A stretch of 64,000 nt of DNA from an uncultured Candidatus Peribacteria bacterium (GTDB lineage: Bacteria; Patescibacteriota; Gracilibacteria; UBA1369; LOWO2-01-FULL-3): the NCBI GenBank assembly GCA_964356355.1, contig CAYHGX010000005.1, positions 495 through 64,494 on the forward strand. Direction: 5' to 3'. The number at the start of each line of letters is the position of its first letter. Within the stretch, counting starts at the first letter, position 1. The position numbers and the translations under genes are program-made. The notes beneath the pieces were generated by a model. That model saw nothing but the letters and a program-made list of their open reading frames with translations, was not told where the DNA came from and ran no database searches. Shown piece after piece: positions 16,090 through 39,386 of this stretch.

Positions 16090-16101
16090 GTTTTTATACT
16101 A

Positions 16102-18850: not shown

Positions 18851-19315
18851 CTAGTAATTTATAGTCCCATTTTGGTTTATAATAATTGTAATTGTTCTGT
18901 TTATTGCCGGGCTATTAAGTGAAACTGCTCCATAATTTGGAGTTTCCCCATCTATTTTTGAAAAGATGACGTTTGATCCCCCTTCGTTTAGGCTAATGCT
19001 GTTTATTCTCATGCTCTCCGGAAGATCAATCTCAAAATTTGATGGATCTTCACTGTCATAGACGTTTCCTTCGAATATAGTGTAGGAGGAATTTTCAAAA
19101 TGAATGCCATGGTCGTTGTCATTTAGTCCTGAGGCGGCGCTACTGCTTGCCAAGCGCAAGGAGTGGGCAATATTTGATGCTTGTGAATTAATATCAGCTT
19201 TAATCTGCAAATTACTGTAATAAGTTGACGCAAGGCCTATTAGCACTGCCATTATTGTGATAACCAGCGCTATTTCTATCATTGAGAAGCCACATTTTCT
19301 GATATTTTTTGCCAT
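18851..19315 (-). CDS. Minor pilin (GspH/FimT-like)
   Basis: MAKNIRKCG|FSMIEIALVI prepilin N-terminus, 154 aa. Confidence 0.65.
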   Translation of the reverse strand: MAKNIRKCGFSMIEIALVITIMAVLIGLASTYYSNLQIKADINSQASNIAHSLRLASSSAASGLNDNDHGIHFENSSYTIFEGNVYDSEDPSNFEIDLPESMRINSISLNEGGSNVIFSKIDGETPNYGAVSLNSPAINRTITIIINQNGTINY

Positions 19316-20523
19316 TATTTTTGAATAAGGTTTGGCAACTGGTAGATTGGCATAATAATTGAAATTGCGATTCCACCTACCAGTGCCGCCATTAGCACTA
19401 GTAATAAGGGCTCGATTGCCACTGATAAGTTTTTTGTTTTTGTATCAACTTCCCGCTCATAGAGGTCTGCGATTTTTCCGGTTGTGGTTTCGAGTGTTCC
19501 CGTTCTTTCTCCCAGCTCAACCATTTTTGTGCACATAGGTGGAAATAATTTAGGACTCCTTTCCAGACTTTCTCCAATCTTACCTCCCTGCTCTACCTTT
19601 TCAGCTGTTTCTAGTAAGACTTTTTTGTAAAGTGAGTTATCCAACATTTCAGCAGTGACGTGTAATGCCTTACTAATCGAAACACTCGCCTGTAATAGTG
19701 AGTTTATCGTTCGTGAGAAGCGCGCAACATTTGCACCAATCAAAATGCCTCCAAATAAGGGCAACCTTATTAAAATACTGTCCCAAAAGGGCCTTAAACC
19801 CCTTAATTTGAATAGGATTGCCATTATCGTTATTATTCCAATAACCCCAAGAGTTGAGAGAAGTGGATTGTGTGTAAGAAAGTCGCTTGTGGCTATCAAC
19901 ATCCTGGTTGGCAGCGGTAGTTTTACCTTGAAGGTTTCAAATATTTTAGTAATTTTGGGCATGATGAATATCACAATTCCGATACCCATCATTAGAGTTA
20001 TTGAGATAATAATTGCTGGGTATATGAGTGCTGATACCACTTTTTGTCTAATTTCACGCTCTTTCTCAAGTTGAATATCCAGGTAACGCAGGACCTCCTC
20101 CAGATTTCCAGCCTCTTCGCCAGTTTGAACCATGTTGATAAATATATTTGAGAAGTTGTTGTCATATTCCTTTAGGCTTTTAGCCAGAGATTGTCCGGAA
20201 TTTATCATGCCCAGGATATCTTCAAACATTTTCTTTATATTGCTGTCTTTAGTCTGATTTCGCATAATCTCTATGGATTCCGTAATGGTAATTCCCACCT
20301 CAAACATGGTGGCTAGATTTTTCACAAACATTATTTTTTCCTGAGTGTTCATCTTGGGCCTACCAAATATCCATTTTTTCCCTTGAGCGTCCTCGCCAAT
20401 CGATAAGACTATTTTTTTCCTGTTTTGCAAAATTTCGATGGCCTCCTCTTTGGTTTGGGCCTCAATAATCCCTTTTTCTTTCTCTCCTGTAATGTCGGTA
20501 GCCGAATATGCAAATTTTAGCAT
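19315..20523 (-). CDS. pilC: Type IV pilus platform protein PilC (T2SS F family)
   Basis: 402 aa with a duplicated T2SSF architecture and three TM regions. Confidence 0.88.
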   Translation of the reverse strand: MLKFAYSATDITGEKEKGIIEAQTKEEAIEILQNRKKIVLSIGEDAQGKKWIFGRPKMNTQEKIMFVKNLATMFEVGITITESIEIMRNQTKDSNIKKMFEDILGMINSGQSLAKSLKEYDNNFSNIFINMVQTGEEAGNLEEVLRYLDIQLEKEREIRQKVVSALIYPAIIISITLMMGIGIVIFIMPKITKIFETFKVKLPLPTRMLIATSDFLTHNPLLSTLGVIGIITIMAILFKLRGLRPFWDSILIRLPLFGGILIGANVARFSRTINSLLQASVSISKALHVTAEMLDNSLYKKVLLETAEKVEQGGKIGESLERSPKLFPPMCTKMVELGERTGTLETTTGKIADLYEREVDTKTKNLSVAIEPLLLVLMAALVGGIAISIIMPIYQLPNLIQK

Positions 20524-20537
20524 TGTACATTTTGTTA

Positions 20538-22247
20538 TTAACTGCGCATAACTCTAAGAACCTCGTCTATCGTAGTGTCTCCTCTTAATACCTTTTGGAT
20601 TCCATCGGTAAACATAATTGTCATTCCTTCCTTCTGAGCCTGTACTTCAATGTCGCTTGCATTACCGTTTTTTAATAGAATTTGTTTGATATCGTCGCTT
20701 ACTTCTATAACCTCACTAATAGAGGTTCGTCCCTTGTATCCGCTACCTACACAGGCACCGCAGCCTTCTCCCTTGTAAAAGGTAAATTCATCAGTGTCTG
20801 TGATTGGTTTTTTGGTTATTTCTTCAATGATTTTAGTGAAATCTTTTTTAACGTTATACTTGCTTCCTAGGCCCTTTACTTCCTGGGCTGTGATTTTGTA
20901 TTCCTTTTTGCATTTTGAGCAGATATTGCGGACAAGTCGTTGTGCAACGATCATCTGGACGGTCGCTCCCAATAGGAAGGCTTCTACTCCCATCTCGAGC
21001 ATACGTGGAAGTGTTGACGATGCGTCATTTGTGTGAAGGGTGGCTAGGACTAAATGGCCTGTCAATGCTGCATTGATCGCGATTCCTGCAGTTTCTTCAT
21101 CGCGTATTTCTCCTACCATCACGATATCAGGATCCTGACGAAGAAGAGATCTAAGGCCAGCGGCAAATGTAAGATTGGACTTTGGATTTACTTGAATTTG
21201 GTTTACACCCTCTAGTCTGTACTCAATCGGATCTTCGATGGTGGAGATGTTTACTTCAGGAGAATTCAGAAGTTTTAGAATTGAGTAAAGTGTTGTGGTT
21301 TTGCCTGATCCTGTTGGGCCGGTCATAAGTACGATTCCATGCGTCTTTAAAATATTCCTTCTAATTTTTGCAAGATTTTCTCCATCGTATCCAAGGGTTT
21401 CCAGGTCCAGCTCTTGACCTGTTGAACTAAGAATACGCAGTACGGTTTTTTCTCCGTTGTATGTAGGGAGGATAGAGACACGCAGAGTTATGTCATTTTC
21501 GTCCAGAGTAATTTTGAAGCGTCCATCTTGAGCCGATCGGTGTTCATCTGTTCGAAGATTTGCTAGCACTTTGATCCTTGAGGTTATAACCTCAAGGATT
21601 GAAACTGGAAACTCTGTAATCTGTTGTAGTAATCCATCAATTCGATATCTGATGGCAACCGTATCTTGCCTTGGTTCTATGTGGATATCTGAGGCATTGT
21701 TTTGGAAGGCAAAAAGTATGATTGTATCAACAATTTTAGAGGAGTCCTTTAGTGATTCTATTTTGCTGGGGTCTGTTAGAACCCCTTCAAGAAGCTTATT
21801 AAATTTCTCATTTACGTCTTTATTGTAGGCGGACAGCGATGTCTTTATTTCCTTTTTTGTGGCATAATAGGTCTCAATTTCAAGGCCGGTTTTTTTGCCG
21901 AGAGCACTGATCAGCTCCCAATTGCAGGGATTGTTCATGGCCACTCTTATTGAGGTGCCGGTCGTTTGAAAGGGAATCAGATATTGGCTTGCCGCCAGTG
22001 TATGTGGGACAAGCCTGAGAATAGATTCGGCGATTGTTTTTTCAGAGAGCTTAACAAATGGAACCTGGTAAACTTCAGCCATCGCTGCTCCAAGCCGTTC
22101 ATCGGGAATCGTCTCCTGTTTGAAGAGCACTTCTTCTATCGGGATGTTGTCCTGGATAGCTCTTTTTTCCGCGGCTTCAAGCGCTTTACTTTGAATCAGT
22201 CCCTGTTCAAGTAGAATCTTTTTTAGAAGTGCGTCATTAATCGACAT
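20538..22247 (-). CDS. pilB: Type IV pilus assembly ATPase PilB (GspE family)
   Basis: Has a GSPII_E N-terminal domain, Walker A GPTGSGKTTTLYS, and Asp and His boxes. Also has a tetra-Cys motif (CSKC...CGAC). Confidence 0.9.
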   Translation of the reverse strand: MSINDALLKKILLEQGLIQSKALEAAEKRAIQDNIPIEEVLFKQETIPDERLGAAMAEVYQVPFVKLSEKTIAESILRLVPHTLAASQYLIPFQTTGTSIRVAMNNPCNWELISALGKKTGLEIETYYATKKEIKTSLSAYNKDVNEKFNKLLEGVLTDPSKIESLKDSSKIVDTIILFAFQNNASDIHIEPRQDTVAIRYRIDGLLQQITEFPVSILEVITSRIKVLANLRTDEHRSAQDGRFKITLDENDITLRVSILPTYNGEKTVLRILSSTGQELDLETLGYDGENLAKIRRNILKTHGIVLMTGPTGSGKTTTLYSILKLLNSPEVNISTIEDPIEYRLEGVNQIQVNPKSNLTFAAGLRSLLRQDPDIVMVGEIRDEETAGIAINAALTGHLVLATLHTNDASSTLPRMLEMGVEAFLLGATVQMIVAQRLVRNICSKCKKEYKITAQEVKGLGSKYNVKKDFTKIIEEITKKPITDTDEFTFYKGEGCGACVGSGYKGRTSISEVIEVSDDIKQILLKNGNASDIEVQAQKEGMTIMFTDGIQKVLRGDTTIDEVLRVMRS

Positions 22248-24980: not shown

Positions 24981-26630
24981 CTAGATCTTGGTGAAATTTC
25001 CATGGGCTGGATCGGCGTAATCGCCGATTTTTGCGTTTGTGATGTTGCCGGAAATGGTTCCGGTGGCTCCGTCTCTTTGTTTGATGGCTTTGTTGGTAAT
25101 ATTATTGAGGATTTGTGCTCCAGTGGTACCTGTGAAGCGATACTCAATTGCATTGGGATAATCGTTTTCCATTAGGATAATATTGTTTTCGACTGTGACG
25201 TCCTTGGCCGTTTCAAGGATGATTCCGGCATCACCGCGAGTGGAGTTGTGATAGATTTTGTTGTTGCGAATTGCGCCGCCATTTTCCCCTCGATCTTCGC
25301 CCATGCCGAAGCCGATGGCCCGATCACAGTTAAGAAAGGTGTTGTTTTCCACTACTGTGTTTTTTGAGCTGGACCAAAAGTGAACTGCATCTTCAGCTAA
25401 GGCCTCTTCCGGGCTTTTGATAGCTATGAAGAGATTGTTTTTCACGATCCAATTTGCGGCGTTGTGGGCATCAATCCCACCAATATAGTATTGGGGACCG
25501 ATTCCGGCAGTATATTCCAGGGTGGAGCATTCTAGGATGCCATTGTCCGCGCCCAGATCCATTTTGCTAGCATCGTAGGAGACTTTAACCAGTTGCTCGT
25601 ATCCGTCAGTGATGTGGAGATTGTGAAGGAGTGCGCCATCGGCGTCCAATTCTCCATGGATTTGGATGACATGGTTGGCAACACCACCCAGCGACATATC
25701 GGCAATGGTGATGTTTTTTCCTGCTAAAAAGAATATGCGGGTGGTTTTGCCGGTCATGCCTTCACCTTTGAGAATAACTGCATCGCGATTGCCTGATGCG
25801 CTGCGAAAAATGATATTTGAGCCGCTTACCCAGAGGCCTTCTCCTGAAAAATTGTAAGTTCCATCTTTGAGAAGAATTGTGACATTACTGGTTTCATTGG
25901 CCTTGGCTACCGCCGTACGAAGCTCATCGACGTTTGAAACATTAATTGTGGTGCCGATCACTGTGTTTAGTGGGTCGCATTTGCCAATTGTGGTCGTGTT
26001 TGGGGGTGGAGTTGATTCTTTGCCGGTAAGTAACCGATAGAGCACCTCGGCAGCGGCGCCACGGGACATCGAGTTGCCTGGGTAATAGTAATCTCCCTCT
26101 TCTTCTAGGAGATTGTTGATTTGGGCTGTTTGCAGATATGGATAGTACCAGGCTGTTGTGGGTACATCTTTGAATTCTACTGTTGGTTGATCACCTTCTT
26201 TGAGCTCATTGATGAGAGTGATCATTTTGATGGCCTCTACTTTATTCACCTCCTGTTCTGGATGAAAATTGCCATCGGCGTAGCCCTGAACCCAACCGTG
26301 AGATTTGGCAAAACAAACGTAGCTGGCAAACCACTGACCGTTAACATCTGGAAAGCATTTGTCATAGGCAACAAAAGTGGGGTAATCGAATTTGCCGTTT
26401 GCATGGGTTGCGATTACTGCAAGCTTAAGGAGCTCGGCACGATTCAGGGTGCGATTCGGCTGAAAAGTGCCATCCTGGTAGCCCTGAATGATATTTTTGC
26501 TTTGAAGATATTCGATGGCTTCCTGATGTGGATCGTTTGCAATATCACTAAATGAAATAGCACTAACTGTCGGCAGATTTGTGCCTACAATTAGGATAAA
26601 AAATAATAGCCTTGCGACTAGTTTTTTCAT
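24981..26630 (-). CDS. Secreted protein with three SLH domains and a right-handed parallel beta-helix domain
   Basis: Signal peptide, then SLH-like repeats (FSDIANDPHQEAIEYL...GYQDGTFQPNRTLNRAELLKL and two more). After these come NN-rich beta-helix turns (VENNTFLNC, IRNNKIYHN, VENNIIL). Confidence 0.8.
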   Translation of the reverse strand: MKKLVARLLFFILIVGTNLPTVSAISFSDIANDPHQEAIEYLQSKNIIQGYQDGTFQPNRTLNRAELLKLAVIATHANGKFDYPTFVAYDKCFPDVNGQWFASYVCFAKSHGWVQGYADGNFHPEQEVNKVEAIKMITLINELKEGDQPTVEFKDVPTTAWYYPYLQTAQINNLLEEEGDYYYPGNSMSRGAAAEVLYRLLTGKESTPPPNTTTIGKCDPLNTVIGTTINVSNVDELRTAVAKANETSNVTILLKDGTYNFSGEGLWVSGSNIIFRSASGNRDAVILKGEGMTGKTTRIFFLAGKNITIADMSLGGVANHVIQIHGELDADGALLHNLHITDGYEQLVKVSYDASKMDLGADNGILECSTLEYTAGIGPQYYIGGIDAHNAANWIVKNNLFIAIKSPEEALAEDAVHFWSSSKNTVVENNTFLNCDRAIGFGMGEDRGENGGAIRNNKIYHNSTRGDAGIILETAKDVTVENNIILMENDYPNAIEYRFTGTTGAQILNNITNKAIKQRDGATGTISGNITNAKIGDYADPAHGNFTKI

Positions 26631-26631
26631 G

Positions 26632-27357
26632 TTATTTGAGTTTTAGGGCCTCACTTAAATCAATAATTTTGTTGATGAATGTTTTTACATTTTCAACGTT
26701 GATTCCGGGATTTTGTGGAGTAGAACCCCAAATTGGGTGACGGGCAATCATCATTGCGGATGTTCCTTCAGTTTGAAGTAGGTCCTCATAAAAAGTGTCG
26801 TTGAAAATCAGATGGTTCTCTTCAAGCTTAAGGTTGAGCCAGCCAAATTGACCAAAGTAGTGCAGAAATTCCGCAGGAATTTCTGCGTTTCCGCTAACCA
26901 TTAGTTTTTCATCAAAAAGTTTTTCACCTGTGTCTTTTGCTACGATATTTTTACTCCTTGGTTGAATATGGAAATTTTTCTTATCTGAATTCTCCACTTC
27001 AAAGGAAATAAATTTACTCATTTTATAGCTGTAGGAACCAGTTGAAAACCCAATATGTTTGGCAGAAACTCCCATAACCAGCTCAATGTTGTGGGCACGA
27101 TATTCACCATGCATTTCGCAACCGGAATTCATGAAGGTTTTTTTGTCTGATGGGTCAGCAGTATTTTCTGAGTATTTTAGGCCGAGCTCCTGTGCCAGAA
27201 TCGGCATTTTATTCTCATAACTTGCCTGAATATTATTAGGCATTAGTGTTGAGAGATTTTGAGGAAGCATTCCTCTAATATTCTTAAGTTTATTGCCAAA
27301 AACCAAGATTGCGATTCCGATGATGATGAATGGTAGAAATTGATAGATTGTTTGCAT
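26632..27357 (-). CDS. Hypothetical membrane-anchored protein (241 aa)
   Basis: N-terminal TM helix, 1 nt upstream of the next gene in the operon. Confidence 0.55.
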   Translation of the reverse strand: MQTIYQFLPFIIIGIAILVFGNKLKNIRGMLPQNLSTLMPNNIQASYENKMPILAQELGLKYSENTADPSDKKTFMNSGCEMHGEYRAHNIELVMGVSAKHIGFSTGSYSYKMSKFISFEVENSDKKNFHIQPRSKNIVAKDTGEKLFDEKLMVSGNAEIPAEFLHYFGQFGWLNLKLEENHLIFNDTFYEDLLQTEGTSAMMIARHPIWGSTPQNPGINVENVKTFINKIIDLSEALKLK

Positions 27358-27359
27358 TT

Positions 27360-27887
27360 TTAGATTAGTTTTGAATTAAGAAAATTGAAAATTGGCTCTG
27401 GAGGCCCAAACTGGCGATTATTTGTTAGCTCCACCATACGTCCAGTGCGACTATCTGTGAAGTCAACATATTGCGCTGGTCGTCGTGTCATTGCGGGCAT
27501 ATTGGCCGCCATCGGATTTGTTATGCGAGGACTTTTTATTATATCATATGGATAGTCTTCAACCTTGCCGTTTAGAGATTTCACAACTTCTTTATCCGTA
27601 AAGATGATCATATTGCGCTTAGCATTGTAGAGATTACGGATGATGCCAACAATGGAGATGAAGAGGTAAAAATCAATTACACCAAATATTCCTGCGAAGA
27701 GATAATTAGTTGTGCCGTAGGTGGGGGCAGTATAAACGAAGGTTGTGGTGGCTCCTCCGAAGATTAAAAGTAAAATCATACGGAAGAAAATGCCTTTCAG
27801 GGCGTCTCCCTTAGCAAAATTGAAGATTGCCCAGCCGGGCTTTGCTTCACCGCGTAATACGGTATCCAAAACGCTTGTTGGTTCCAT
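27360..27887 (-). CDS. Hypothetical two-TM membrane protein (175 aa)
   Basis: Two adjacent hydrophobic helices followed by a soluble tail. Tight operon spacing. Confidence 0.55.
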   Translation of the reverse strand: MEPTSVLDTVLRGEAKPGWAIFNFAKGDALKGIFFRMILLLIFGGATTTFVYTAPTYGTTNYLFAGIFGVIDFYLFISIVGIIRNLYNAKRNMIIFTDKEVVKSLNGKVEDYPYDIIKSPRITNPMAANMPAMTRRPAQYVDFTDSRTGRMVELTNNRQFGPPEPIFNFLNSKLI

Positions 27888-27896
27888 AAGGAGTTG

Positions 27897-28133
27897 TTAT
27901 TTAACTCCCTTATTCTGCAACTGTTGAGTCTGAGTTTCAACCTTTTTAATAAGCCCTTGGTAATCGCTGGCAGAATTCATATTAAATAGTGCGTAAAGTG
28001 CCACTACTACTGCGATCCCTACGAAAATCATCGCGATGATAAACCCCTTGCTTTGGAGCAATTCTGGTTTTTTAAGAATAATTGATTCTGGATTTAAAAT
28101 GGGATTAACTTCTGGTTTGGTTTCTTCTGGCAT
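27897..28133 (-). CDS. Small single-pass membrane protein (78 aa)
   Basis: One TM helix (GFIIAMIFVGIAVVVALYALF). Starts 3 nt after the upstream stop. Confidence 0.5.
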   Translation of the reverse strand: MPEETKPEVNPILNPESIILKKPELLQSKGFIIAMIFVGIAVVVALYALFNMNSASDYQGLIKKVETQTQQLQNKGVK

Positions 28134-28136
28134 GGG

Positions 28137-30452
28137 TTACTTGGTTACGGTTATGGTGAGTTCGAAACTGCTAACTGTATTCTGGGAATCACTAACTTCC
28201 AGCTTGACCTTGTAGGTACCGGCATTTTCGAAAATATGAGTTGGTTTAACCTGTGTTGAAGTGCCGCCATCTCCAAAGTCCCAAAGATAATTATTGATTG
28301 TGCCTGTAGAACATCCGGGATCTAAAGTAGTGGTAAGAGGTGCAATGCCATGATCGAATATTGTTGAGAAACAAGCGTTCAAGGGTATCTCTCGGACTGT
28401 GATTGTGGTGGTAGCGGTGCTTTGAGTGTTGTCAGAGCCAATTGCGGTAACAGTGGCAGTGTAGCTACCAATGGATACGTACTTGTGATTCATTTTTGCA
28501 GCACCCAATTTAGTGGGTGTCCCATCTCCAAAATCCCACCTATAGCTCACTATTTTACCCTTTGGATAAGTGGAGCCACTAGCATCAAAATTTACTGTTA
28601 GAGGTACTGTCCCGTCAACCTGATCGGCCTTGATGTCGGCGACGATGCCTTGTGATTCTACTTTAACAACAATAGTTGATTTCCCAATATTGCCATCACT
28701 ATCAGTTACCGAAAGGGTAACGTTGTAGGTGCCTTCCTGATTATAGATGAAACTTGTATGAGATCCCGCTCCATCAACTTTATCATCACCTGTAAAGTCC
28801 CACTGGTAATCAACGATGTTGTTATCGCTATCAGTGGAGCCGCTGGCGTCAAATACGACTGTAAGTGGTACCTTTCCTGAAAGCACAGAGGTGCTTATGT
28901 CTACAACTGGATCAGTGGTGATTTTTGCAACTGGTATCCCCTTTACGTTTCCAACTGTAATCTTCTTCACCTCGGTTCCATCTTCACCGGCTTCATCTGT
29001 GACAGTGAGCGTCACGTCGTAATTTCCTGCATTTGCAAAGGCATGAGCGGCTGTTTTTGTAGTTTCTGTTTTAGTGCCGTCCCCAAAATCCCAAGCATAT
29101 TTTTGAATTTTTCCTTTGGGTGATGTTGATCCATCAGATTTAAATATATAACTAGTGCCAATTGTATATTTGGCAGGTTCATCTGCAATGGTAATAACTG
29201 CAAGGGGCCCCTTGTGCTCTACAACTTCAATCTCCTTTTCGGTAACCGCTGATTCTCCGGTTGTATTTGTAACACGAAGTGAAACGGTATATTTTCCGAT
29301 CTTTTCAAATGTAAATTTAACCTTTTCTCCTTCAGCGTCTGAATAATCTCCATCACTGTTGAAATCCCATTCATAGGTATCAATATTTCCATCTGGATCC
29401 GAGGATTTACTGGCATCAAAATTTACCTCGAGTGGCGCATCTCCAGATTGGGGATCGGCCTCGAATAAGGCACTAAGAGCCTCGTTTGTGATGGAAACAG
29501 TCACATGGTATTCCCCGCCAACGCTAATTTCACCTGTATCTTTGTCCTTTACGTTTACAATTAATTTCACATCGTAAATTCCTTTGGTTTCATAGATGTG
29601 TGACACAATCTGGCTTGTACCGGTACTCTTGTCTCCAAAATCCCAATCGTGGGAGACAATTTGATATTTATCTTTATTAAGTGGAACATTGGTAGCATCA
29701 AATTTAATTTCGATTGGAGCACTAATATTTAAGGTTTCAGTTGGAGTAGTAATTATCGGATCAAGGAGTGACGGGGCTACCTCGGTGCGCTTAGAGTCCA
29801 AATATACGTAGGCAAATCCCCAAACTAAAAGGATGAGAGTGAGGGCAATGCCGGAGAAAAGGCTTTGACGTAAACCAGCCTTTTTCGCCTCTTTATCGTC
29901 ATGTTTCGCCATGCTGCTGCGGAAAAGGCCAATCATGGTAAATACGAAAGCGATTAAAGCAAAAGAGATAAATATGAGATGAATGAAGGTAATGAGTCCA
30001 TTAACAAAGGCTCCTTGATCTACGCCGAGAAGTTTTGCGATCGGACTAACACCAGCACCCGATTGTCCTAAGAAAACGAAGGAAAGGACGAGAGCAATGA
30101 GCAATACTGAACCAAAAGCCCCTAAACATCCAAGCATCGCCTTTTTACGAGCCTCTGGGTTTGGAGGTAGTGGTGGCTGTGGGCCGGATGGTGGTTTGTT
30201 CACGGTCTGTGGAACTGATGGAGCTACAGGAGTGGTAGAAACGGCTGGAATAGTAGCTGCTGGAGTGACTGGCAGTGTTGTTGGAGCCGGTGAGACACCT
30301 GGCATGATTGTGCGGTTTACAATTGGAGTTACTGGACTTTGTATGTCGTTTGTATATTTTTTAATTTCTGGGGCTGCTTGAGCCGGAGCTGCTGCTATTC
30401 CATCATCATCCTCGTCAGAGCCCACGTCTAGATCAATAAGTTTATCGTTCAT
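28137..30452 (-). CDS. Polytopic membrane protein with six PKD-like domains
   Basis: An acidic and Pro-rich N-terminus is followed by about 4 TM helices. Six repeats then carry W-D-F-G-D-G-like cores (WDFGDK, WDFNSDG, WDFGDG, WDFTGDD, WDFGDG, WDFGDG). Confidence 0.85.
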   Translation of the reverse strand: MNDKLIDLDVGSDEDDDGIAAAPAQAAPEIKKYTNDIQSPVTPIVNRTIMPGVSPAPTTLPVTPAATIPAVSTTPVAPSVPQTVNKPPSGPQPPLPPNPEARKKAMLGCLGAFGSVLLIALVLSFVFLGQSGAGVSPIAKLLGVDQGAFVNGLITFIHLIFISFALIAFVFTMIGLFRSSMAKHDDKEAKKAGLRQSLFSGIALTLILLVWGFAYVYLDSKRTEVAPSLLDPIITTPTETLNISAPIEIKFDATNVPLNKDKYQIVSHDWDFGDKSTGTSQIVSHIYETKGIYDVKLIVNVKDKDTGEISVGGEYHVTVSITNEALSALFEADPQSGDAPLEVNFDASKSSDPDGNIDTYEWDFNSDGDYSDAEGEKVKFTFEKIGKYTVSLRVTNTTGESAVTEKEIEVVEHKGPLAVITIADEPAKYTIGTSYIFKSDGSTSPKGKIQKYAWDFGDGTKTETTKTAAHAFANAGNYDVTLTVTDEAGEDGTEVKKITVGNVKGIPVAKITTDPVVDISTSVLSGKVPLTVVFDASGSTDSDNNIVDYQWDFTGDDKVDGAGSHTSFIYNQEGTYNVTLSVTDSDGNIGKSTIVVKVESQGIVADIKADQVDGTVPLTVNFDASGSTYPKGKIVSYRWDFGDGTPTKLGAAKMNHKYVSIGSYTATVTAIGSDNTQSTATTTITVREIPLNACFSTIFDHGIAPLTTTLDPGCSTGTINNYLWDFGDGGTSTQVKPTHIFENAGTYKVKLEVSDSQNTVSSFELTITVTK

Positions 30453-30461
30453 ATAAGTGTA

Positions 30462-33400
30462 TTATTTGTATTTTATTTCCTGGTTCACTGAGTGCTCATT
30501 GCCATAAATGTCTTTTACAGTGAGCTTGGCAGTAGTTTTTCCCCATGATTGATCGTAATTTGTAGTCCAGGTCCCTGGGAAAACGGTTTTAAAATCTTCG
30601 TCATCGTTTGGAATTCCATTTCCGTTGGTATCGAAGTAGATATTCTTATCAATGATGTAATAGGCAATTGTGCCAATTGATTTTGAAAAATCGAATTTAA
30701 CGGTACCAACTGTGCCGGGCAGATAAACAATACCATCACTATCTGGCATTGGGTCAGTTGTGAGCATTGCTCTTAATGTTTCTAAGACATCCTTTGTTTC
30801 ATCTTTTATAGTTGAGGAGTCGGTAGTCACGGTTGAGTCACCGGGATTCACAAGATTGGTATCAACACTGTTTACTACAAAATCTTTATTGCCATAGTTG
30901 TCAGCAACTGTGAGTTTTACTTTGTAAATTCCTCCCAAAAGGTATTGGTACACTGGTTCGAATTCTGTTGAATTATTATCGTTGTCTTTTATTCCATCTC
31001 CATCACTGTCGGCTGTTGCCAGGGTGGATGCATTATCAAAGTCCCAAATATATTTTTCGACTTTTGCTCCGTGTTCTGAATCTGAAGTGGAGTTGTTTTT
31101 AAAGATCACTTTTCCGTCTACTACCTTGAAGGTAAATGCGGCGGTTGGAGGCAGAGATAAGGGTACAGTGAGGGTATTTACCACCTGATCGGTATTACCC
31201 TGATCATCGGTAATGGTAAGCTTTACTGTAAAGGTGCCTTGACCAGTAAACAGTCTTTCTGGATCTTTTGCCTGAGAGTCGACGTCGTTATCTTTGATGC
31301 CGTCGCCATCGCTATCTGAAGTTGCGGCGGTGGAGTTGGTATCGAAATCCCACTTATAGCTAATGATTTTGGCTCCGGCCTCTGGATCGGCTTCGGAATG
31401 ATTTGTGAATTTAACTTTTTTCCCTTCGCTACCATCAACCACCTTAAAGGTGAAGGCAGCATTTGGTGGCTTCGCGAGGGAATCAATGTAGATTCTTACT
31501 GGCTGAGAGATTGATTCTCCACCTTTGTCATCAACTACTTTGAGGCGTGCATTATAACCGTCAGTATTTTTCTGGGAGTAAATATATTCGTATGTGGCTT
31601 TTGTCGTGGGTTCATTATTATAAAAGCCATCACCTTCCGTGTCCCAAATATAGCTCTTTATTTGGCCATCGGAGTCGGTGGATGAACTAGAAAATATCAC
31701 CTTGTCTCCTGCATAGGCATTGGTTGTATTTACGCTGAATTTAGCTACAGGAAGCTCATTTGGTCCATTCACAACTTCTACTTTGCTAATTTCTGATTCA
31801 CTCATTGATTGATAATCCGGGGAGTAACTTAAGTTATCGGAATCTACGACCTCGAGTCCAAAGCCATATTTCATCTTTTCACCATTTTTCCCTCTAGTAC
31901 CAATTATTAGCTGAGCGTTTGGTGTTTTTGTGATCTGAATGCCAAGTGGTTCACTTGGATCGTCAACATCAAAATACCACCATTTATATTCGGTAATTTC
32001 GCCATCGATATCCTCAGCACCATAGGCTCTTACTTGAACCGTGACTGGCGTAACTAGCGCGCCAGATATGGCTACAGGTATAGCCTGAATGCTCGAAAAT
32101 CTTGGTGGTGAATTAACTACATCAATCTGAATTTCGTCGGTATCTGTTTTTTTGGCATCATCCTTGTCGGTAACAGTAAGTCTTACGGTGTAATAACCTG
32201 GATCAAGTGGACTCAGCTCCTTAAATTTGTGGTTTTCCAAGCGACTAGAGCTCTTGCCGGTGTCGCCAAAATCCCAACTATAAACTAGGTCGCGGCCGGT
32301 ACCATCTGTATTTTTTGAGGCCTCGGCATCGAAAGCAAGGATATCCTTTTTATTTACCTTAACAGGTTGAGAAAAATCACTAATGACAGCGTCATTCATT
32401 TTTAAGGTAATTTTGGCAACCGGCTTATCCCCTCCTCCAATAAAAATATTACGAGTAATCGTGGTGGAATTGTCCTCGGCATCATAAACTGTAACTTTCA
32501 CATTGTACTTGCCTGCCTGAAGGTAGTCGTGTGGAATTATTGCAGTGTTGTGAAGATCGCCGTTACTATTATTTCCGTCACCGAAGTCCACCTCGTAGGC
32601 GATTGCATTATCGCTGAGCACGTTAAAGTCCATGTGAGCCTTACCCTTGCCTTCTCCCTCTGTTGCCATAATTGAGGTAACTTCCTGCGTTGGTGCCCAG
32701 GCTACATCCAAAATATTATCGATTTTTATTTTCTTGGTTAATTCTGTGAATTCCTCCTGCTTAAGATTATCGACAACTTTGAGCGTTACATCGTAATCAC
32801 CTTTCTCGAGAAATTTGACTGTTGGGGTTGAAGTGGTAAGACCGTTGGCCACGTCTCCTTCATCTAGCTTCCATTTGCCCTCTGGCTTAATAGTCCATAA
32901 ATAACTGAAGGAATTATCATTGTTGTTATCGGGATCGAAGCTGGAAGAGCCGTCAAAGGCAACGGTGGCAGGTTGGTTTGGCTTAGGAGTTGAATAGTTG
33001 AAGAGTGCAACAGGGGGTTTTGAGCTGACTTTGTAGTCTGAAATTATAGCTGTTTTGTCTTCACTGCTGCCATCGCTAACTATTACCTGGATATCGTAGT
33101 CGAGCTGGTATTTGAATTGATGAGTAAGAGTACGAAGATTGGCTCCCGAAGCTTTAAATGGATAATCCTTGGCGATTTTAGCCTGAACCTCTGGCGGTGC
33201 CTTTTGAATGTTTTTCGCAGTAATTAGCCATTCATAGCTAACAATTTTGCCAAGATCTGAGTGAGATTCGCTGGCATCCAAAATAACATTTTGACCTACA
33301 AAAGCCTCGTTAGTTGGATTGGCTTTCAGAATTGCAGCTAATGACCCTACTTCAATTGTGAAGACTTTACTATCGGAAACTCCCAGCTGATTGGTGACGG

Positions 33401-35498
33401 TAAGCGTCACGTCGTATTTTCCGGGTTTTTTAATGCCGTCATAATCCAGAATTCCGTTTGAAGACTCAGTTGTGTAGCCATTACTTATTGTCCATTTATA
33501 TTTTTCGATGAGTTTAGTGCCGCTCGCATCAAGATGAATGCCATTGCCGCTCTTGGCGTCCTCGAGAGTTATTGAGACTGTCCGCAAATTGGACTCAAGG
33601 AAGTCTCCATTGTAGGCCATAATATCGATAGGATCGCGAGACCCAGCCTTCATGGTAAGGTTAATTTTATTTGTAGGTGGGCGTACCTTAATGGTTACAA
33701 CGCTAATACCCGGCGCAAATTTCGTGGCATCGTTGGAGTTGATTTTTACTGCCGCCGTGTAGGTACCGGGCTGATCGAAGCGACAACGTTTTGCGGTGTT
33801 GCTAACATATGAAGCCTGTTCTTCTGCTGGAATGCCGGTGAGGTCACAACTAACGCCTGGTGAGTTAATCACCTTGTTGCCACCTTCGTTGGCTGGATCA
33901 TAGTTAAATAATCCTGAAATCGTCCTTGCGCCTCCTATGTCCCAGACGATATTACTTTGACCATTTATGCTGCCTCCTGCAGGGTCGGAGCTACCAACGG
34001 TATCAAAAACTACTGTTAGTGGTGCTGCTCCCTCTACCACATTGGCACTTAATCTGGCCTGAACAAATTGTAGATTGGCCAGTTCATCATATAATATCGA
34101 ATGTTGCTTTAAGCCTTCAATCAGTAGTCCGCCAATTATATCAATGCTGGATTGAGAGTCTACGGTCCAAGCTTTTATATTTTGGAGAAGACCACCAGTC
34201 ACCGCTGAGACTGTGTAAATATTTGGATTATCGCGATCGGCTAATTCGGCAGTGTATCCATAGGCTGTTGCGCCCTTCATTATTTCGTAGGCTTTATTTG
34301 CATTACCGTCCTTTATCGCCTGGATATTCGAAAAGGACGAATAAATCTGTTCTAGTCGTTTAAATATTTCCTCAAGTTGTTTGCTATAGTCTGCAGCAAT
34401 GGGCTGAATGATTCCGTAGATATTAGGCAAAACCTCCTGCCTCAAGGGAGTACCTGCTTCATTTGCATGAATCGATGTGTAAGCCTGTTGAACCATATTC
34501 CACTTCTCGTAGAGACCAACCTGATAGGTGTCCTTATAGTGCTTTTTCTCCTTACAGTACCAATCTCTAAATTTCTCTCCATTGTAGGCCGCCCTAAATT
34601 CATCGGCAAAAGTCTTTTCGTCATCGCCAATGTCCTCCCTGGAGCAGTAGGACATTTTTCCGTCATTGCCGAGTTTCACAAGGTCTGTGTCGGTGAGAAT
34701 CTGGATGGAATCAAGGTCGGTGGCGATAGATCTGATTAATTCATTAATACGTGCCTCAGCCACAGTAAAGGCCTGCAGCTTTGATTTAATGGTTGTTAAT
34801 TTGCTTTGAACACTGATTAGGAAGTTAACAATGCTGGTTTTTGGAGGCAAGCTTTTTGGGTTCAAGGATTCCTTTTCGGCGTCATTTTTGATATTCTGTA
34901 GATCTTCGGAAGTTTCAGAAAGAAACTTAAAGCCATTGAAAATCTCAACGGCAAGCGACCGGACCTCCTCTGCTGAGGCGTTGAAGGCACCGCTACTTTT
35001 CCCCGTTGATCCCATAGATGAATTACCATCCACTCCCCCACCAGCACCCTTAATAACCGTATTAACAAAAGCATAAGACCCCATAACTATCAAAAGCCCC
35101 ACTACTGCGTAGCCGATGGCCTTTTTGGCAGTGCCCGTCTGGTCGTCATTGCCTCCGGAGATCACATAAAGCACGCCGGCATAGATAATTATAATGACAG
35201 CAATTAAGCCCAGGAAGCCAAGGGCGAAGTTCACAATTCTAATAACGAAACCTTTTAGATCGGAAGAGGAGGTAATTGCCGTGTCATAGCCATCTGGAGT
35301 AAGCTGAGCCAATTGTCCCTCGTACTGTGTGAAAGATAATCCTTGATCCCCGGTTTTAAACATTTCACCAGCGGCCTTGCCGGCATCAGCCCAAAATCCA
35401 GCATTGGCAACCGGCACAGTTGCTGCGAAAATCGAAAAAACAGCTGTAACAAGCAGCAATTTTAATAAATGTTTTTTTATTTTTAGGATGAGGGGCAT
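30462..35498 (-). CDS. Giant (1678 aa) surface protein: signal peptide, pilin-like two-helix hairpin, helical region, about 11 PKD-like domains
   Basis: The N-terminal hairpin is IVNFALGFLGLIAVIIIIYAGVLYVISGGNDDQTGTAKKAIGYAVVGLLIVMGSYAFVNTVI. PKD cores include WDFGD, WDFDT and WDFDN. DSDGDGIKDND inserts are present. Confidence 0.85.
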   Translation of the reverse strand: MPLILKIKKHLLKLLLVTAVFSIFAATVPVANAGFWADAGKAAGEMFKTGDQGLSFTQYEGQLAQLTPDGYDTAITSSSDLKGFVIRIVNFALGFLGLIAVIIIIYAGVLYVISGGNDDQTGTAKKAIGYAVVGLLIVMGSYAFVNTVIKGAGGGVDGNSSMGSTGKSSGAFNASAEEVRSLAVEIFNGFKFLSETSEDLQNIKNDAEKESLNPKSLPPKTSIVNFLISVQSKLTTIKSKLQAFTVAEARINELIRSIATDLDSIQILTDTDLVKLGNDGKMSYCSREDIGDDEKTFADEFRAAYNGEKFRDWYCKEKKHYKDTYQVGLYEKWNMVQQAYTSIHANEAGTPLRQEVLPNIYGIIQPIAADYSKQLEEIFKRLEQIYSSFSNIQAIKDGNANKAYEIMKGATAYGYTAELADRDNPNIYTVSAVTGGLLQNIKAWTVDSQSSIDIIGGLLIEGLKQHSILYDELANLQFVQARLSANVVEGAAPLTVVFDTVGSSDPAGGSINGQSNIVWDIGGARTISGLFNYDPANEGGNKVINSPGVSCDLTGIPAEEQASYVSNTAKRCRFDQPGTYTAAVKINSNDATKFAPGISVVTIKVRPPTNKINLTMKAGSRDPIDIMAYNGDFLESNLRTVSITLEDAKSGNGIHLDASGTKLIEKYKWTISNGYTTESSNGILDYDGIKKPGKYDVTLTVTNQLGVSDSKVFTIEVGSLAAILKANPTNEAFVGQNVILDASESHSDLGKIVSYEWLITAKNIQKAPPEVQAKIAKDYPFKASGANLRTLTHQFKYQLDYDIQVIVSDGSSEDKTAIISDYKVSSKPPVALFNYSTPKPNQPATVAFDGSSSFDPDNNNDNSFSYLWTIKPEGKWKLDEGDVANGLTTSTPTVKFLEKGDYDVTLKVVDNLKQEEFTELTKKIKIDNILDVAWAPTQEVTSIMATEGEGKGKAHMDFNVLSDNAIAYEVDFGDGNNSNGDLHNTAIIPHDYLQAGKYNVKVTVYDAEDNSTTITRNIFIGGGDKPVAKITLKMNDAVISDFSQPVKVNKKDILAFDAEASKNTDGTGRDLVYSWDFGDTGKSSSRLENHKFKELSPLDPGYYTVRLTVTDKDDAKKTDTDEIQIDVVNSPPRFSSIQAIPVAISGALVTPVTVQVRAYGAEDIDGEITEYKWWYFDVDDPSEPLGIQITKTPNAQLIIGTRGKNGEKMKYGFGLEVVDSDNLSYSPDYQSMSESEISKVEVVNGPNELPVAKFSVNTTNAYAGDKVIFSSSSTDSDGQIKSYIWDTEGDGFYNNEPTTKATYEYIYSQKNTDGYNARLKVVDDKGGESISQPVRIYIDSLAKPPNAAFTFKVVDGSEGKKVKFTNHSEADPEAGAKIISYKWDFDTNSTAATSDSDGDGIKDNDVDSQAKDPERLFTGQGTFTVKLTITDDQGNTDQVVNTLTVPLSLPPTAAFTFKVVDGKVIFKNNSTSDSEHGAKVEKYIWDFDNASTLATADSDGDGIKDNDNNSTEFEPVYQYLLGGIYKVKLTVADNYGNKDFVVNSVDTNLVNPGDSTVTTDSSTIKDETKDVLETLRAMLTTDPMPDSDGIVYLPGTVGTVKFDFSKSIGTIAYYIIDKNIYFDTNGNGIPNDDEDFKTVFPGTWTTNYDQSWGKTTAKLTVKDIYGNEHSVNQEIKYK

Positions 35499-35521
35499 AT
35501 GTCGCTCGGAATTATAAGTTT

Positions 35522-36511
35522 TTAATTTGATTCTTGCAAATTTGGGTTGTTTGGATCCGGAAGCTTCACAAAAGTGGACACGATTGCAAAACTACCAAAA
35601 GCAAGTAGAAGTGCCACCAGAGCGCCAATTACGATTTTCTTCACCTTCTCGGTAGCCTCTTCATTGCCAGCAGAGACGACATACCTGTATCCACCATAAA
35701 ATAGAGTAACAAAAGAAAAGAGTGCCACAAAGCCTGAAACGTAGTTCGTGAGCTGAATAAGTAGCTTCCGGCCTGCATTAACGTCTGGCAAGGCACTTCC
35801 GTTGTCTGGAAAAATTATCACCCTTACTACCAGCTCCACCAACCCAATAATTATCAATCCTGCCACGGCATATAGAATATGTGTTTTTGCTTTTCCGATG
35901 GCCTCTTCATCTCCTGCACTGCCTATCAAGGTGACTCCACGAATTACAATTACAAAAACTGCAATGGCTCCAATAAAGGCCTCTACAAAGCCCACTACTC
36001 CCCTGATCTGAGAAACGCTTTCCTGGGCGTACATCTGGGCTGTCGCCACGTTTTCAAAGGCATCGCCGTTTTCGCCAAAGAACATTTTTTTCACAACGAC
36101 ATCGGCAAGTTGAATTACTAATAGTCCAATTGTTCCATATATAAGAGTATCTTTATTTTCTTCTGCTTTTGATTCGTCCGAGGTGGAAATTAGGCGGATA
36201 GCTGAAACAATAATCATTACGAGGGCAATTCCGCTCATAAAGTAACGGAATAGATCGAGTGCAAATAAAATTGGACTTGAAACTATATCGACTCCTTCTA
36301 GTGCAACCGGGGCGTCGGGATGAGTCGCTGCTGGGCCCGAAGTATAGTAATCGGGCAGGTTGGTCCCCTTTCCTATCTCTATCAATCTTTCTCCTGGCGT
36401 TTGCGTTGAGGATCCCGTTGCCTGGGCGTAAGTAAGGGTATTGGCATGTAACACAAGTACGAACGCGGTAAGTACTAAAGATGCTCCGAGTTTTACTAAA
36501 AATCTCTTCAT
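35522..36511 (-). CDS. Membrane protein built from three tandem VirB2/TrbC-like (T4SS-pilin-like) hairpin modules
   Basis: Signal peptide plus three copies of helix-turn-helix-type hairpins whose turns read LISTSDESKAEENK, LIGSAGDEEAIGKAK and VVSAGNEEATEKVKK. Confidence 0.7.
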   Translation of the reverse strand: MKRFLVKLGASLVLTAFVLVLHANTLTYAQATGSSTQTPGERLIEIGKGTNLPDYYTSGPAATHPDAPVALEGVDIVSSPILFALDLFRYFMSGIALVMIIVSAIRLISTSDESKAEENKDTLIYGTIGLLVIQLADVVVKKMFFGENGDAFENVATAQMYAQESVSQIRGVVGFVEAFIGAIAVFVIVIRGVTLIGSAGDEEAIGKAKTHILYAVAGLIIIGLVELVVRVIIFPDNGSALPDVNAGRKLLIQLTNYVSGFVALFSFVTLFYGGYRYVVSAGNEEATEKVKKIVIGALVALLLAFGSFAIVSTFVKLPDPNNPNLQESN

Positions 36512-36512
36512 A

Positions 36513-37475
36513 TTATTGGGCTATGGCCTGGATATCTTCTAAGCGACCAGCTAAAACGGTACTAACAAGAGCAAATGCGCCATAAACAATCACTATCCCA
36601 CCAATTGAGGCAAAAATTATACGCTTTGCGCGCTCTACGGCTGTGTCTTCGCCTCCTGCGGTGGCATACATAACTCCGCCAATCAACAACATGAGTACAG
36701 CTGCAGGACCAACAAAACTCACAACAAGATTAGTAATTCCTACTATTTGCTCAACTCCAGCTTTGGCATCGGAATACGGATGAGCTCCAGTAATGCCAGA
36801 ATAGGAGGTTTTATCAATTTTATAGAAGACCTTATTAATAAATACATCTCCAAGATAAACCAGAACCAATCCTGACAAACTATACATAATGCTTTTTTTG
36901 TGCTTCGCTGTAGTCTCCTCATTTCCACCGGCTGTTATCAATTTCGCTGCGGACCGGACAATCATTACCACGGCGTATGAACCGATCACGTATTTCACAA
37001 AGGTCACAAATATCTCCACTTGCTTATCAAAAAGATGTACCCGCTGAAGAATGCTCTGTGGGCTACCAAAAAGAGTATCTTTGCGCATATCAAAAATAGC
37101 AGCAACATCTTGGGACATACTGATCATCACGAAGGCGATAATACTATAAATGATGCCGCGAGTAGCTCTGGAGACCTCTTCTTCGTTGCCACTTGCCGTA
37201 ATAAGGGTGAAGCCCATCAAACTAATAAAAAGCAAACCAATTACGCCTGTGAGCACTTTTACATATGGCAAAACTCCATTAATCACAAATTCAACTACTG
37301 CCTGCTGCCCTTCTCCTGACCCTATGTCCGGAGTGGGAATTTGAGCAGATTTATAAATACCATATGCACTATCCGGCATAGGCAAAGAGCTTGCCAAAGC
37401 CATGTTTCCAATTAAGACGGCCGAAACCGCCATGATCGCTAGAAACTGCAGTGCTGTTTTTAGAATTTGTTTCAT
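36513..37475 (-). CDS. Paralogous three-module pilin-like membrane protein
   Basis: Same architecture as 35522..36511, with turns LITASGNEEEVSRATR, LITAGGNEETTAKHKK and YATAGGEDTAVERAKR. 1-nt gap to the next gene. Confidence 0.7.
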   Translation of the reverse strand: MKQILKTALQFLAIMAVSAVLIGNMALASSLPMPDSAYGIYKSAQIPTPDIGSGEGQQAVVEFVINGVLPYVKVLTGVIGLLFISLMGFTLITASGNEEEVSRATRGIIYSIIAFVMISMSQDVAAIFDMRKDTLFGSPQSILQRVHLFDKQVEIFVTFVKYVIGSYAVVMIVRSAAKLITAGGNEETTAKHKKSIMYSLSGLVLVYLGDVFINKVFYKIDKTSYSGITGAHPYSDAKAGVEQIVGITNLVVSFVGPAAVLMLLIGGVMYATAGGEDTAVERAKRIIFASIGGIVIVYGAFALVSTVLAGRLEDIQAIAQ

Positions 37476-37559
37476 TTTTATTTTAATTTTCCCTATATTT
37501 TAGCATATTTCAGCCTTTTTCTCAAGCACAACAGTACAAAAGCGCTAAATTAAGTTCCC

Positions 37560-38459: not shown

Positions 38460-39386
38460 ATGAGAAAGTTTACTGTTTTTACAGTGATTCTAGCGATTAC
38501 GGTGATTGTGACCGTGTCAGAAATGTTCGTAAACAATTATTTGCCTAGTCTACAGAGTGGAGAGAAAAAAGATCTTTCACTTACTCTTCCGGAGAGTCTT
38601 GATTTATCAAAAATCGTAAAAACAGATACTTTTGCTGCGGATGAGAATAGCGATGTAGACCCAACCCTCACGAACAAACTGGGTTCTGATGTAGTAAAGG
38701 AAAGCACCTCCACATTCGTAGATGAAACCAGTCCAACTCCAACCCCTATCGCTCCTGTCAAGAGTAAACCTGGCGAGTTGGCCAACCTGTATGACACCGA
38801 CCCTACTTTCACGGGCTCATATGACAACGCTATTCCAGTTCCAGCTGATCAAACTGGAAAATCGCCAGTACCAACCGTTCCGGCAGTAACTGCAAACAGT
38901 AGTGGAAAGGCCGATGATTTTGAGGACCCAAACTACAGTGCCAGTGGCGTAAACGTGACTTTAAGGCAGGACCAAATAGAAAGTGCAGGTTTTTATAATG
39001 CATACATTGAATCAGAGGCTAGCGATGGAAAATTATTCAAGACGATTGATGTGCTTGATCTTTACGACACCCAGATGCAGAAATTTGTCATTCGCAGCAA
39101 AGAGGAAATGATGGCTAAGGCTTACATTTTCAGCGTTGGATCGAGTACTAAAATTGACGAGGTGTATCAATTGATCAAGTCTAGATGTGGACAAACCCCG
39201 CTTGTTACAATCAACGAAACAAATGGCTTTGGTAGTGAGAGTTTTTACATGAATGACTCAAGCAGAAGTAATACTGTGTTTTTGACTGTTCGAGTTGGGC
39301 AAGCTATTTATGCTTTTTCATACCCTAAAACCTATCATCAGCAGGTTAAAAACCTACTGCAGCTGATTACTTGGGAAATAGATTAA
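38460..39386 (+). CDS. Hypothetical membrane-anchored/secreted protein inserted between nusG and rplK
   Basis: 308 aa with an N-terminal TM helix, a Pro/Thr-rich linker and an unrecognised C-terminal domain. Confidence 0.6.
   Translation: MRKFTVFTVILAITVIVTVSEMFVNNYLPSLQSGEKKDLSLTLPESLDLSKIVKTDTFAADENSDVDPTLTNKLGSDVVKESTSTFVDETSPTPTPIAPVKSKPGELANLYDTDPTFTGSYDNAIPVPADQTGKSPVPTVPAVTANSSGKADDFEDPNYSASGVNVTLRQDQIESAGFYNAYIESEASDGKLFKTIDVLDLYDTQMQKFVIRSKEEMMAKAYIFSVGSSTKIDEVYQLIKSRCGQTPLVTINETNGFGSESFYMNDSSRSNTVFLTVRVGQAIYAFSYPKTYHQQVKNLLQLITWEID

Follow-up and report, generated by a model that had tools for sequence, protein, structure and literature searches.

We analysed a 64,000-nucleotide stretch of DNA from an uncultured Candidatus Peribacteria bacterium (contig CAYHGX010000005.1 of GenBank assembly GCA_964356355.1, positions 495 to 64,494; hereafter the window) and identified four adjacent minus-strand genes, P1–P4, that appear to form a conserved surface-structure cassette of Peregrinibacteria/Gracilibacteria-type bacteria of the candidate phyla radiation (CPR). 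The cassette combines seven non-interchangeable hairpins of the VirB2/TrbC pilin family, distributed 3+3+1 over three Sec-exported chains, with arrays of PKD domains on two proteins, the anchor being a hairpin of its own in P3 and three transmembrane (TM) helices in P4. Our preferred reading, to which we give a probability of roughly 0.45 on the sequence evidence, is that the products may form a membrane hairpin assembly of fixed composition that bears PKD stalks and is uncoupled at the genomic level from a type IV secretion system (T4SS). CPR bacteria are believed to live in attachment to other cells, and little of their surface machinery has been charted. Genes annotated as T4SS pilins rank among the families most enriched in CPR genomes and are essential in the one organism tested; the cassette offers a concrete, conserved and compact four-gene target. 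Its genes, all on the minus strand, are the following:

36513..37475, minus strand: P1, 320 aa, signal peptide and three PF18895 hairpins (Pfam); hairpins at aa 59–130, 148–218 and 239–312 (nt 37086–37301, 36822–37034 and 36540–36761)
35522..36511, minus strand: P2, 329 aa, signal peptide and three PF18895 hairpins (Pfam, NCBIfam); hairpins at aa 76–146, 164–238 and 247–320 (nt 36074–36286, 35798–36022 and 35552–35773)
30462..35498, minus strand: P3, 1678 aa, signal peptide, one hairpin and a PKD array (Pfam, custom PKD model); hairpin at aa 81–152 (nt 35043–35258)
28137..30452, minus strand: P4, 771 aa, three TM segments and six PKD domains (Pfam, hydropathy)

Seven Hairpins on Three Chains

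Both P1 and P2 matched the Pfam T4SS_pilin family PF18895 over three stretches (E = 1.6e-18, 67.0 bits and E = 1.4e-19, 70.4 bits, respectively; cut-off 26.6), and P2 also scored above the cut-off of NCBIfam NF045849, a pilin-like family from Mycoplasma integrative and conjugative elements (ICEs) (49.3 vs. 40 bits). The single PF18895 match of P3 (aa 87–145, 24.8 bits) lies slightly below the cut-off; its hairpin was recovered at E ~1e-22 by a hidden Markov model (HMM) built from the module, and PF18895 matches are also present in P3 orthologues. Across the window's 649 six-frame open reading frames (ORFs), the module HMM found exactly 3+3+1 hairpins in P1, P2 and P3 and no further module-bearing ORF. 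An initial annotation, made from the sequence alone, had counted the same seven modules, and all seven polar turns that it quoted (ITASGNEEE, ITAGGNEET, ATAGGEDTA, ISTSDESKA, GSAGDEEA, VSAGNEEA and ISGGNDDQ) are present as written. Its assignment of the module to the VirB2/TrbC-like pilins was also supported: PF18895 is matched by 77 of 77 P1-family members, and PF04956 (TrbC/VirB2) by 56 of the 77 at E ≤ 0.01, with a best value of 8.7e-7. The best match to PF04956 in the window, that of P3, reached 17.9 bits, below the cut-off of 27.9, and the module profile retrieved no solved VirB2, TraA or TrbC pilin from the PDB sequences at E up to 10. At the level of protein families, the profile matches support homology of the hairpin module to VirB2/TrbC.

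Modelling of P1 with AlphaFold2 (AF2) gave three helix-turn-helix hairpins at a pLDDT of 76.9, with helix pairs 56–93/98–127, 139–181/186–217 and 237–272/277–319; the predicted fold is thus the two-helix hydrophobic hairpin of VirB2/TrbC-type pilins. A whole-chain Foldseek search of the model against the PDB returned generic helical proteins only (best E = 0.6), which is uninformative, since comparing the whole chain of three hairpins in this manner is unable to match it to pilins of ~65 aa.

P1 and P2 are collinear paralogues that align module for module at 26% identity, and the acidic-then-basic turn (GG[ND]EE...K.KK) is strongly conserved in all seven hairpins. Compared over 22 genomes, hairpins at the same position were 54–72% identical among orthologues, as opposed to 20–40% between positions. 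The P3 hairpin, with its many invariant residues, is the best conserved position, at a mean identity of ~69–72% and still 60% to the most distant cassette (L027). The linkers between hairpins are conserved as well (51–62% identity, with invariant aromatic, Pro and Gly residues), which argues for a folded, specific assembly. These linkers bear on the idea that P1 and P2 are polyprotein precursors, each cleaved into three single pilins like those of ordinary CPR pilin arrays. Genes for single hairpins of ~106 aa and fused forms do stand side by side in some loci (L032), indicating that the two forms are evolutionarily interconvertible. The linkers, however, hold no conserved signal-peptidase site of the Ala-X-Ala type before hairpins 2 and 3, and none of 21 loci departs from the fused 3+3 form; we give such cleavage hardly any credence.

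PKD Arrays and a Putative Stalk

The PKD-rich 1678-aa protein and the polytopic six-PKD protein of the initial annotation were both recovered by the HMM and hydropathy analyses, and both P3 and P4 gave repeated matches above threshold to PF18911/PF00801. In P3, the signal peptide and the hairpin are followed by a mostly helical, non-PKD region (aa 153–480) in which we found no Pfam match, and then by the array stretch (aa 480–1678; nt 30462–34061; Pfam PKD match of P3, E = 1.7e-47), where the custom PKD HMM resolved 10 units at aa 480–1548 and a weak 11th. TSP3-like Asp-rich motifs lie close to the C-terminus. Homologue searches with the P3 N-terminus, as a single sequence and as a profile, gave at least five matches. 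P4 has no signal peptide and begins with a Pro/Ala-rich N-terminus of ~100 aa that is predicted to be cytoplasmic, followed by three hydrophobic segments within aa 103–220 (hydropathy) and six PKD units at aa 233–770 (Pfam PKD_4, E = 1.5e-94). Segments TM2–TM3 of P4 were considered as an eighth hairpin (NCBIfam, 17.6 bits) and rejected, as the module HMM gave E-values of 0.05 or worse; hhalign probabilities of 1–12%, against 0.5–1% for control TM segments, left the candidate unsupported.

Since P3 combines a signal peptide with two TM helices and an extracellular array of PKD units, the turn of its hairpin has to face the cytoplasm. Under our preferred reading, cleavage of the signal peptides would be followed by insertion of the hairpins with the acidic/basic turns on the cytoplasmic side and the linkers and termini outside. 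Lateral packing of all seven hairpins from P1, P2 and P3 in the cytoplasmic membrane would then yield a single hetero-oligomer of fixed composition, which would hold the base of the P3 stalk, some 10–11 PKD units that could measure tens of nanometres if extended, and associate with the shorter six-PKD stalk of P4. The two stalks together may make up a constitutive spike or fibre reaching through the wall. On this view, the pilin hairpin would serve as a reused membrane assembly module and not as the repeating unit of a pilus extruded by a T4SS, and, if this is true, the hairpin family would exemplify a pilin fold turned into a membrane scaffold. With its fixed 3+3+1 layout and well-conserved PKD arrays, the cassette lends itself to co-folding, co-expression and cryo-EM work.

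A ring or bundle of such hairpins could alternatively be a membrane channel, an uptake or export pore serving, for example, the acquisition of host material, with the charged cytoplasmic turns lining or gating the pore and the PKD proteins guiding contact. The conservation of the turns in all seven hairpins is compatible with this, and in VirB2 pili the loop equivalent to the turn lines the lumen; the related family NF045849 is, moreover, a membrane component of Mycoplasma ICE conjugation. Against a channel, the cassette contains no energising ATPase or substrate-related gene, the Foldseek search gave no structural match to any channel, and the idea is purely inferential. We judge it improbable.

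Conservation was not uniform along the PKD proteins. The most variable part of P3 is membrane-proximal (aa 281–470, 22% identity), whereas the distal PKD domains are better conserved (50–62% overall), with identities of 55% in PKD7–10 of P3, 51% at the P3 C-terminus and ~61% in PKD5–6 of P4. A tip that recognises variable hosts is expected to show the opposite pattern, and the data do not fit a host-specific adhesin tip. The pattern suggests a conserved partner instead, possibly the cell's own envelope or the other PKD protein.

Conservation of the Cassette

Searches with P1 found more than 196 homologues of ~320 aa at 46–76% identity, and the named sources were nearly all Peregrinibacteria, Gracilibacteria or Patescibacteria. 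Comparison of the whole cassette drew on 20 distinct relatives from Peregrinibacteria, Peribacteria and Gracilibacteria: a 591-kb and a 775-kb contig contributed one locus each, and the other 18 are from reference metagenome-assembled genomes (MAGs). The order P1-P2-P3-P4 was kept in all 20 wherever the contig was long enough, and the cassette was divergent from secE-nusG in almost all of them. Identities to the relatives were 46–60% for P1, 45–56% for P2, 38–49% for P3 and 48–61% for P4, similar to SecE in the same loci (51–64%); NusG was 87–92% identical there. The 3+3+1 architecture was found in 21 of 21 loci. We found no earlier description of the P1–P4 cassette in the literature searched.

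Some of the cassette-bearing MAGs (L011, L012, L015 and L016) are labelled Nitrospirota bacterium while their cassette is of the Peregrinibacteria type. In L011 and L015, whose contigs reach upstream, the cassette adjoins secE-nusG, and in the isolate CSMAG_680 it is found on three separate contigs; these MAGs probably reflect mis-binning or a strain mixture.

More distant loci retain the plan with different fusions. In L027 (27% identity), secE-nusG is accompanied by proteins of 315 aa and 334 aa, a giant of 2076 aa and a PKD protein of 694 aa. L025 encodes eight hairpins on one 820-aa chain, followed by a single hairpin of 155 aa, a hairpin-plus-PKD protein of 383 aa and a PKD protein of 718 aa; L029 and L031 carry 4+4+1+1 hairpins on four chains followed by a PKD protein of ~729 aa. 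L032 has 14 hairpins, among them five single pilins of 106 aa and a 606-aa protein with seven in tandem, and no PKD partner. L027, L029 and L031 each end in a PKD protein orthologous to P4, with the TM region included in the alignment (E from 1e-93 to 1e-151), and P4 orthologues that include this region also occur in L005–L024; the terminal PKD protein of L025 matches P4 in the PKD part only (38% identity, E = 9e-85). Judged from these sequences, P4 is the constant partner in every cassette variant. Hairpin totals are 7 (3+3+1) in the clade of our window and 10 in both L025 (8+1+1) and L029/L031 (4+4+1+1), and we count the arrival at the same total of 10 by different fusions in favour of a fixed composition.

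When P1 was searched exhaustively, 3,176 representatives came up at E ≤ 1e-3 and 381 at E ≤ 1e-10. The top matches were mostly three-hairpin proteins of 300–350 aa, with some proteins reaching 900 aa, showing that fused hairpins are common and not a rarity. The initial annotation had held that the hairpin usually occurs as single proteins of roughly 100 aa and had treated its concatenation here as unusual: the first statement is only partly right, and the second has to be given up.

A broader proposal, which we put forward only tentatively, is that the pilin hairpin has been taken over class-wide as a T4SS-independent membrane base of fixed composition that roots PKD fibres, with seven hairpins on three chains here and ten elsewhere, and that the cassette is a core feature beside secE-nusG. 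If so, it would represent a new kind of base for a bacterial surface appendage. If the hairpins assemble without a T4SS, the annotation "T4SS pilin" would be misleading for a whole bacterial class.

Relation to Type IV Secretion

No VirB4-, VirD4- or TrbL-type Pfam match was found in the 64-kb window, and the only Walker-A proteins of at least 250 aa are BipA, PilB and an ABC-F protein. The absence of VirB4, VirD4 and VirB6 noted in the initial annotation accordingly stands for the ATPases, while VirB6-type proteins are not strictly excludable. The 10-kb flanks of ~27 related loci (within L005–L032) contained no T4SS gene or large ATPase, and no gene for a stand-alone candidate major pilin was detected with the module HMM in the window or in the flanks of L005–L024.

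These hairpins may nevertheless be built into a pilus by a VirB4-powered T4SS encoded elsewhere, with P1–P3 extracted as subunits or as a tip or initiation complex and the PKD arrays of P3 and P4 serving as pilus-borne adhesins. In the F- and T-pilus structures, VirB2-type pilins have both their N- and C-termini on the outside of the pilus, so a covalent linkage of hairpins could be tolerated. The family matches to PF18895 and TrbC/VirB2 described above agree with such a pilus, and the distinct, conserved and non-interchangeable subunits resemble minor-pilin tip complexes; one may even speculate that the ten hairpins of some lineages equal two pentameric layers. Essential predicted pilins of Saccharibacteria sit within a T4SS cluster (PMC10633639), VirB4 occurs widely across Patescibacteria, and in class Gracilibacteria the components of the T4SS are frequently scattered (PMC12102498). 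On the other side stand the lack of any T4SS gene in the window or within 10 kb at the ~27 loci, the lack of a single-hairpin candidate for a major pilin and the failure of the module profile to retrieve a solved pilin. A study of five complete Peribacteria genomes, which also describes S-layer genes and large extracellular proteins, names a type II secretion system (T2SS) and type IV pili and no T4SS (PMC4736985), a weak argument in the same direction. We consider a T4SS-built pilus unlikely and yet a live alternative, as the window is only part of a genome and VirB4 is widespread in the phylum.

Several points weigh against our preferred reading of a T4SS-independent assembly. A pilus tip or initiation complex could equally be expected to show high conservation and hairpins specific to their positions. 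With a pTM of only 0.45, the AF2 model of P1 gives no confident prediction of how the hairpins pack against each other. As hairpin totals are 7 in some cassette types and 10 in others, no one stoichiometry holds for all of them. The genome may encode a VirB4-type T4SS and single-hairpin pilins outside the window, and class Gracilibacteria in general has VirB4 homologues (PMC12102498).

Comparison with known systems sets the cassette apart in several respects. The VirB2-like arrays of Patescibacteria consist of 2–11 separate genes with a mean identity of 25% and have been read as variable, and pilin genes were near virB4 in 1,135 of 1,948 assemblies (PMC12102498). The cassette shares with these arrays and with the T4SS cluster of Southlakia epibionticum (PMC10633639) the family PF18895, Sec signal peptides, tandem paralogous hairpins and a CPR host. 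It does not show the pattern of tandem separate genes at ~25% mean identity: its hairpins are fused 3+3+1 with 54–72% conservation at each position, are always paired with PKD-array membrane proteins and, in the loci seen, never have a T4SS gene as a neighbour. The cassette-bearing genomes did not occur in the supplements of the T4SS survey.

VirB2/TrbC/TraA pilins (PF04956) share with the cassette the signal peptide and the sequence of hydrophobic helix, short polar/basic turn and second hydrophobic helix. The cassette differs from them in its subthreshold PF04956 scores, in the lack of a retrieved solved pilin, in its multicopy fusions, one of them joined to a 1,500-aa ectodomain, and in its position, with no VirB4, VirB6 or VirD4 found nearby. 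The Mbov_0395-family Mycoplasma ICE protein (NF045849) belongs to the same hairpin family and comes from a single-membrane bacterium; it is a single hairpin in a mobile element with conjugation genes, unlike the cassette, which is chromosomal, conserved beside housekeeping genes and devoid of conjugation genes. Distinct, non-interchangeable modules in fixed numbers, one with an adhesin-like ectodomain, also recall the minor-pilin tips of type IV pili and T2SSs, and this resemblance would be one of analogy and not homology, as neither the fold nor the assembly machinery is related.

In CPR bacteria, the Pam pilus (bioRxiv 10.64898/2026.03.03.709456) is a surface filament of Ig-like domains, and the PKD units match its PamR weakly. 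Identity with this pilus was rejected, the scores against PamR (NF058578) being 40.6 bits for P4 and 18 bits for P3, against a cut-off of 300, on generic Ig/PKD repeats. Pam pilins assemble by donor-strand exchange with chaperone-like partners (bioRxiv 10.64898/2026.03.03.709456), none of which is present in the cassette. Giant PKD-containing membrane proteins were reported from a sister lineage in the Vampirococcus paper, with no link to pilin-like genes.

Genes Downstream of P4

P1–P4 are the first genes of a run of eight minus-strand ORFs, P1–P8, which lie at exactly the coordinates first annotated, all with ATG starts and separated by gaps of 1, 23, 9, 3, 9, 2 and 1 nt. The remaining genes of the run and the putative promoter are the following:

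37497..37525, minus strand: promoter-like site, TTGAGA, 17-nt spacing and TG-extended TAAAAT (consensus match)
27897..28133, minus strand: P5, 78 aa, single TM segment (hydropathy)
27360..27887, minus strand: P6, 175 aa, two TM segments (hydropathy)
26632..27357, minus strand: P7, 241 aa, N-terminal TM anchor (hydropathy)
24981..26630, minus strand: P8, 549 aa, signal peptide, three SLH domains and a right-handed beta-helix (Pfam)

The 163-nt region between P1 and the divergent secE holds two promoter-like sites by consensus scan, the one listed lying ~22 nt 5' of the P1 start, and a sequence scan showed no terminator-like hairpins between the genes of the run. A single P1–P8 transcript is plausible given the short gaps, the common strand, the promoter-like sites before P1 and the lack of an internal terminator-like site.

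The three small membrane proteins of the initial annotation were confirmed by hydropathy, with one hydrophobic segment in P5, two in P6 and one in P7. Against Pfam, NCBIfam and PHROGs, P5 had no family match; P6 had sub-threshold matches only (Pfam, NCBIfam), P7 had neither a family match nor relatives in the metagenome scan, and a PHROGs scan of these genes gave nothing useful. The description of P8 as a protein with three SLH domains and a parallel beta-helix also held: the SLH match covers aa 26–200 in three stretches (E = 2.7e-25, 88.5 bits), and the C-terminal domain alone (aa ~385–530) matches Beta_helix PF13229 at 27.0 bits, against a cut-off of 25.9, which is the make-up of an SLH-anchored wall protein with a right-handed beta-helix. 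Its PDB sequence matches were confined to Sap SLH domains.

The initial annotation had combined all eight genes into a dedicated adhesion apparatus, with P1, P2 and P5–P7 as a membrane platform, P3 and P4 as a PKD fibre and P8 as a wall-anchored glycan-active enzyme. The tight spacing on one strand with no terminator-like sites in between speaks for it, as do the wall-binding SLH domains of P8 and its beta-helix, a fold common in glycan-active enzymes. The relatives do not bear it out, however. P5–P8 were not found beside any other cassette, either in the related loci or in the metagenome scans with P7 and P8, and are missing 3' of P4 in relatives with long enough contigs; in L005 and L006 the gene after P4 encodes an fn3 protein instead. 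The 15 relatives of P8 in the metagenome scan share the SLH part only (39–47% identity), and none of the 15 is beside a cassette. The enzymatic role of P8 had been drawn from the fold alone, and no catalytic family was assigned to it by Pfam, NCBIfam and a further scan. The gene order is hence kept for P1–P4 and not for the eight genes jointly, which makes the four genes P1–P4 the conserved unit, and we regard the eight-gene apparatus as improbable. P5–P8 are more readily seen as a tail of envelope genes specific to this genome, probably co-transcribed with the cassette and outside the conserved machine.

Other Genes of the Window

Further SLH proteins are encoded at 54638–55984 (minus strand) and 60065–61342 (plus strand), one with a FlgD Ig-like domain, so that anchoring by SLH domains seems general in the envelope of this organism. 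The gene content of the window is of the Peregrinibacteria type, with purF, purD, folD, a pheA/tyrA fusion and several SLH proteins.

A type IV pilus cluster occupies 13890–22247 on the minus strand and includes a PilM/N fusion, PilC, PilB and prepilin-like proteins. Considered as a possible partner of the cassette, the cluster proved to lie apart from it, with an ABC-F gene and a cysE-like gene on the opposite strand in between, and was not seen in the flanks of the relatives. Individual genes of the cluster are the following:

14434–16089, minus strand: PilM-PilN fusion protein, 551 aa
17006–18850, minus strand: 614-aa prepilin-like protein, N-methylation motif fused to LVIVD beta-propeller repeats
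18851–19315, minus strand: small prepilin

Divergent from P1 lies secE-nusG-rplK-rplA, a cluster that is usually invariant. Here it contains, between nusG and rplK, a 308-aa ORF (38460–39386, plus strand) that has a TM segment at its N-terminus and matches nothing in Pfam or PHROG. The ORF is kept at that position in all relatives at 35–45% identity and looks like a lineage-specific insertion.

Three large ORFs, of 992 aa (46–3024, plus strand), 671 aa (48850–50865, minus strand) and 584 aa (62220–63974, minus strand), had no Pfam or PHROG match at E ≤ 1e-3; the third alone has a Walker-A-like motif, probably by chance. The pheA/tyrA fusion is a 572-aa ORF (51818–53536, minus strand) that joins prephenate dehydrogenase, prephenate dehydratase and an ACT domain (TyrA-PheA), and together with purF, purD and folD beside it represents a biosynthetic capacity unusual for a CPR genome.

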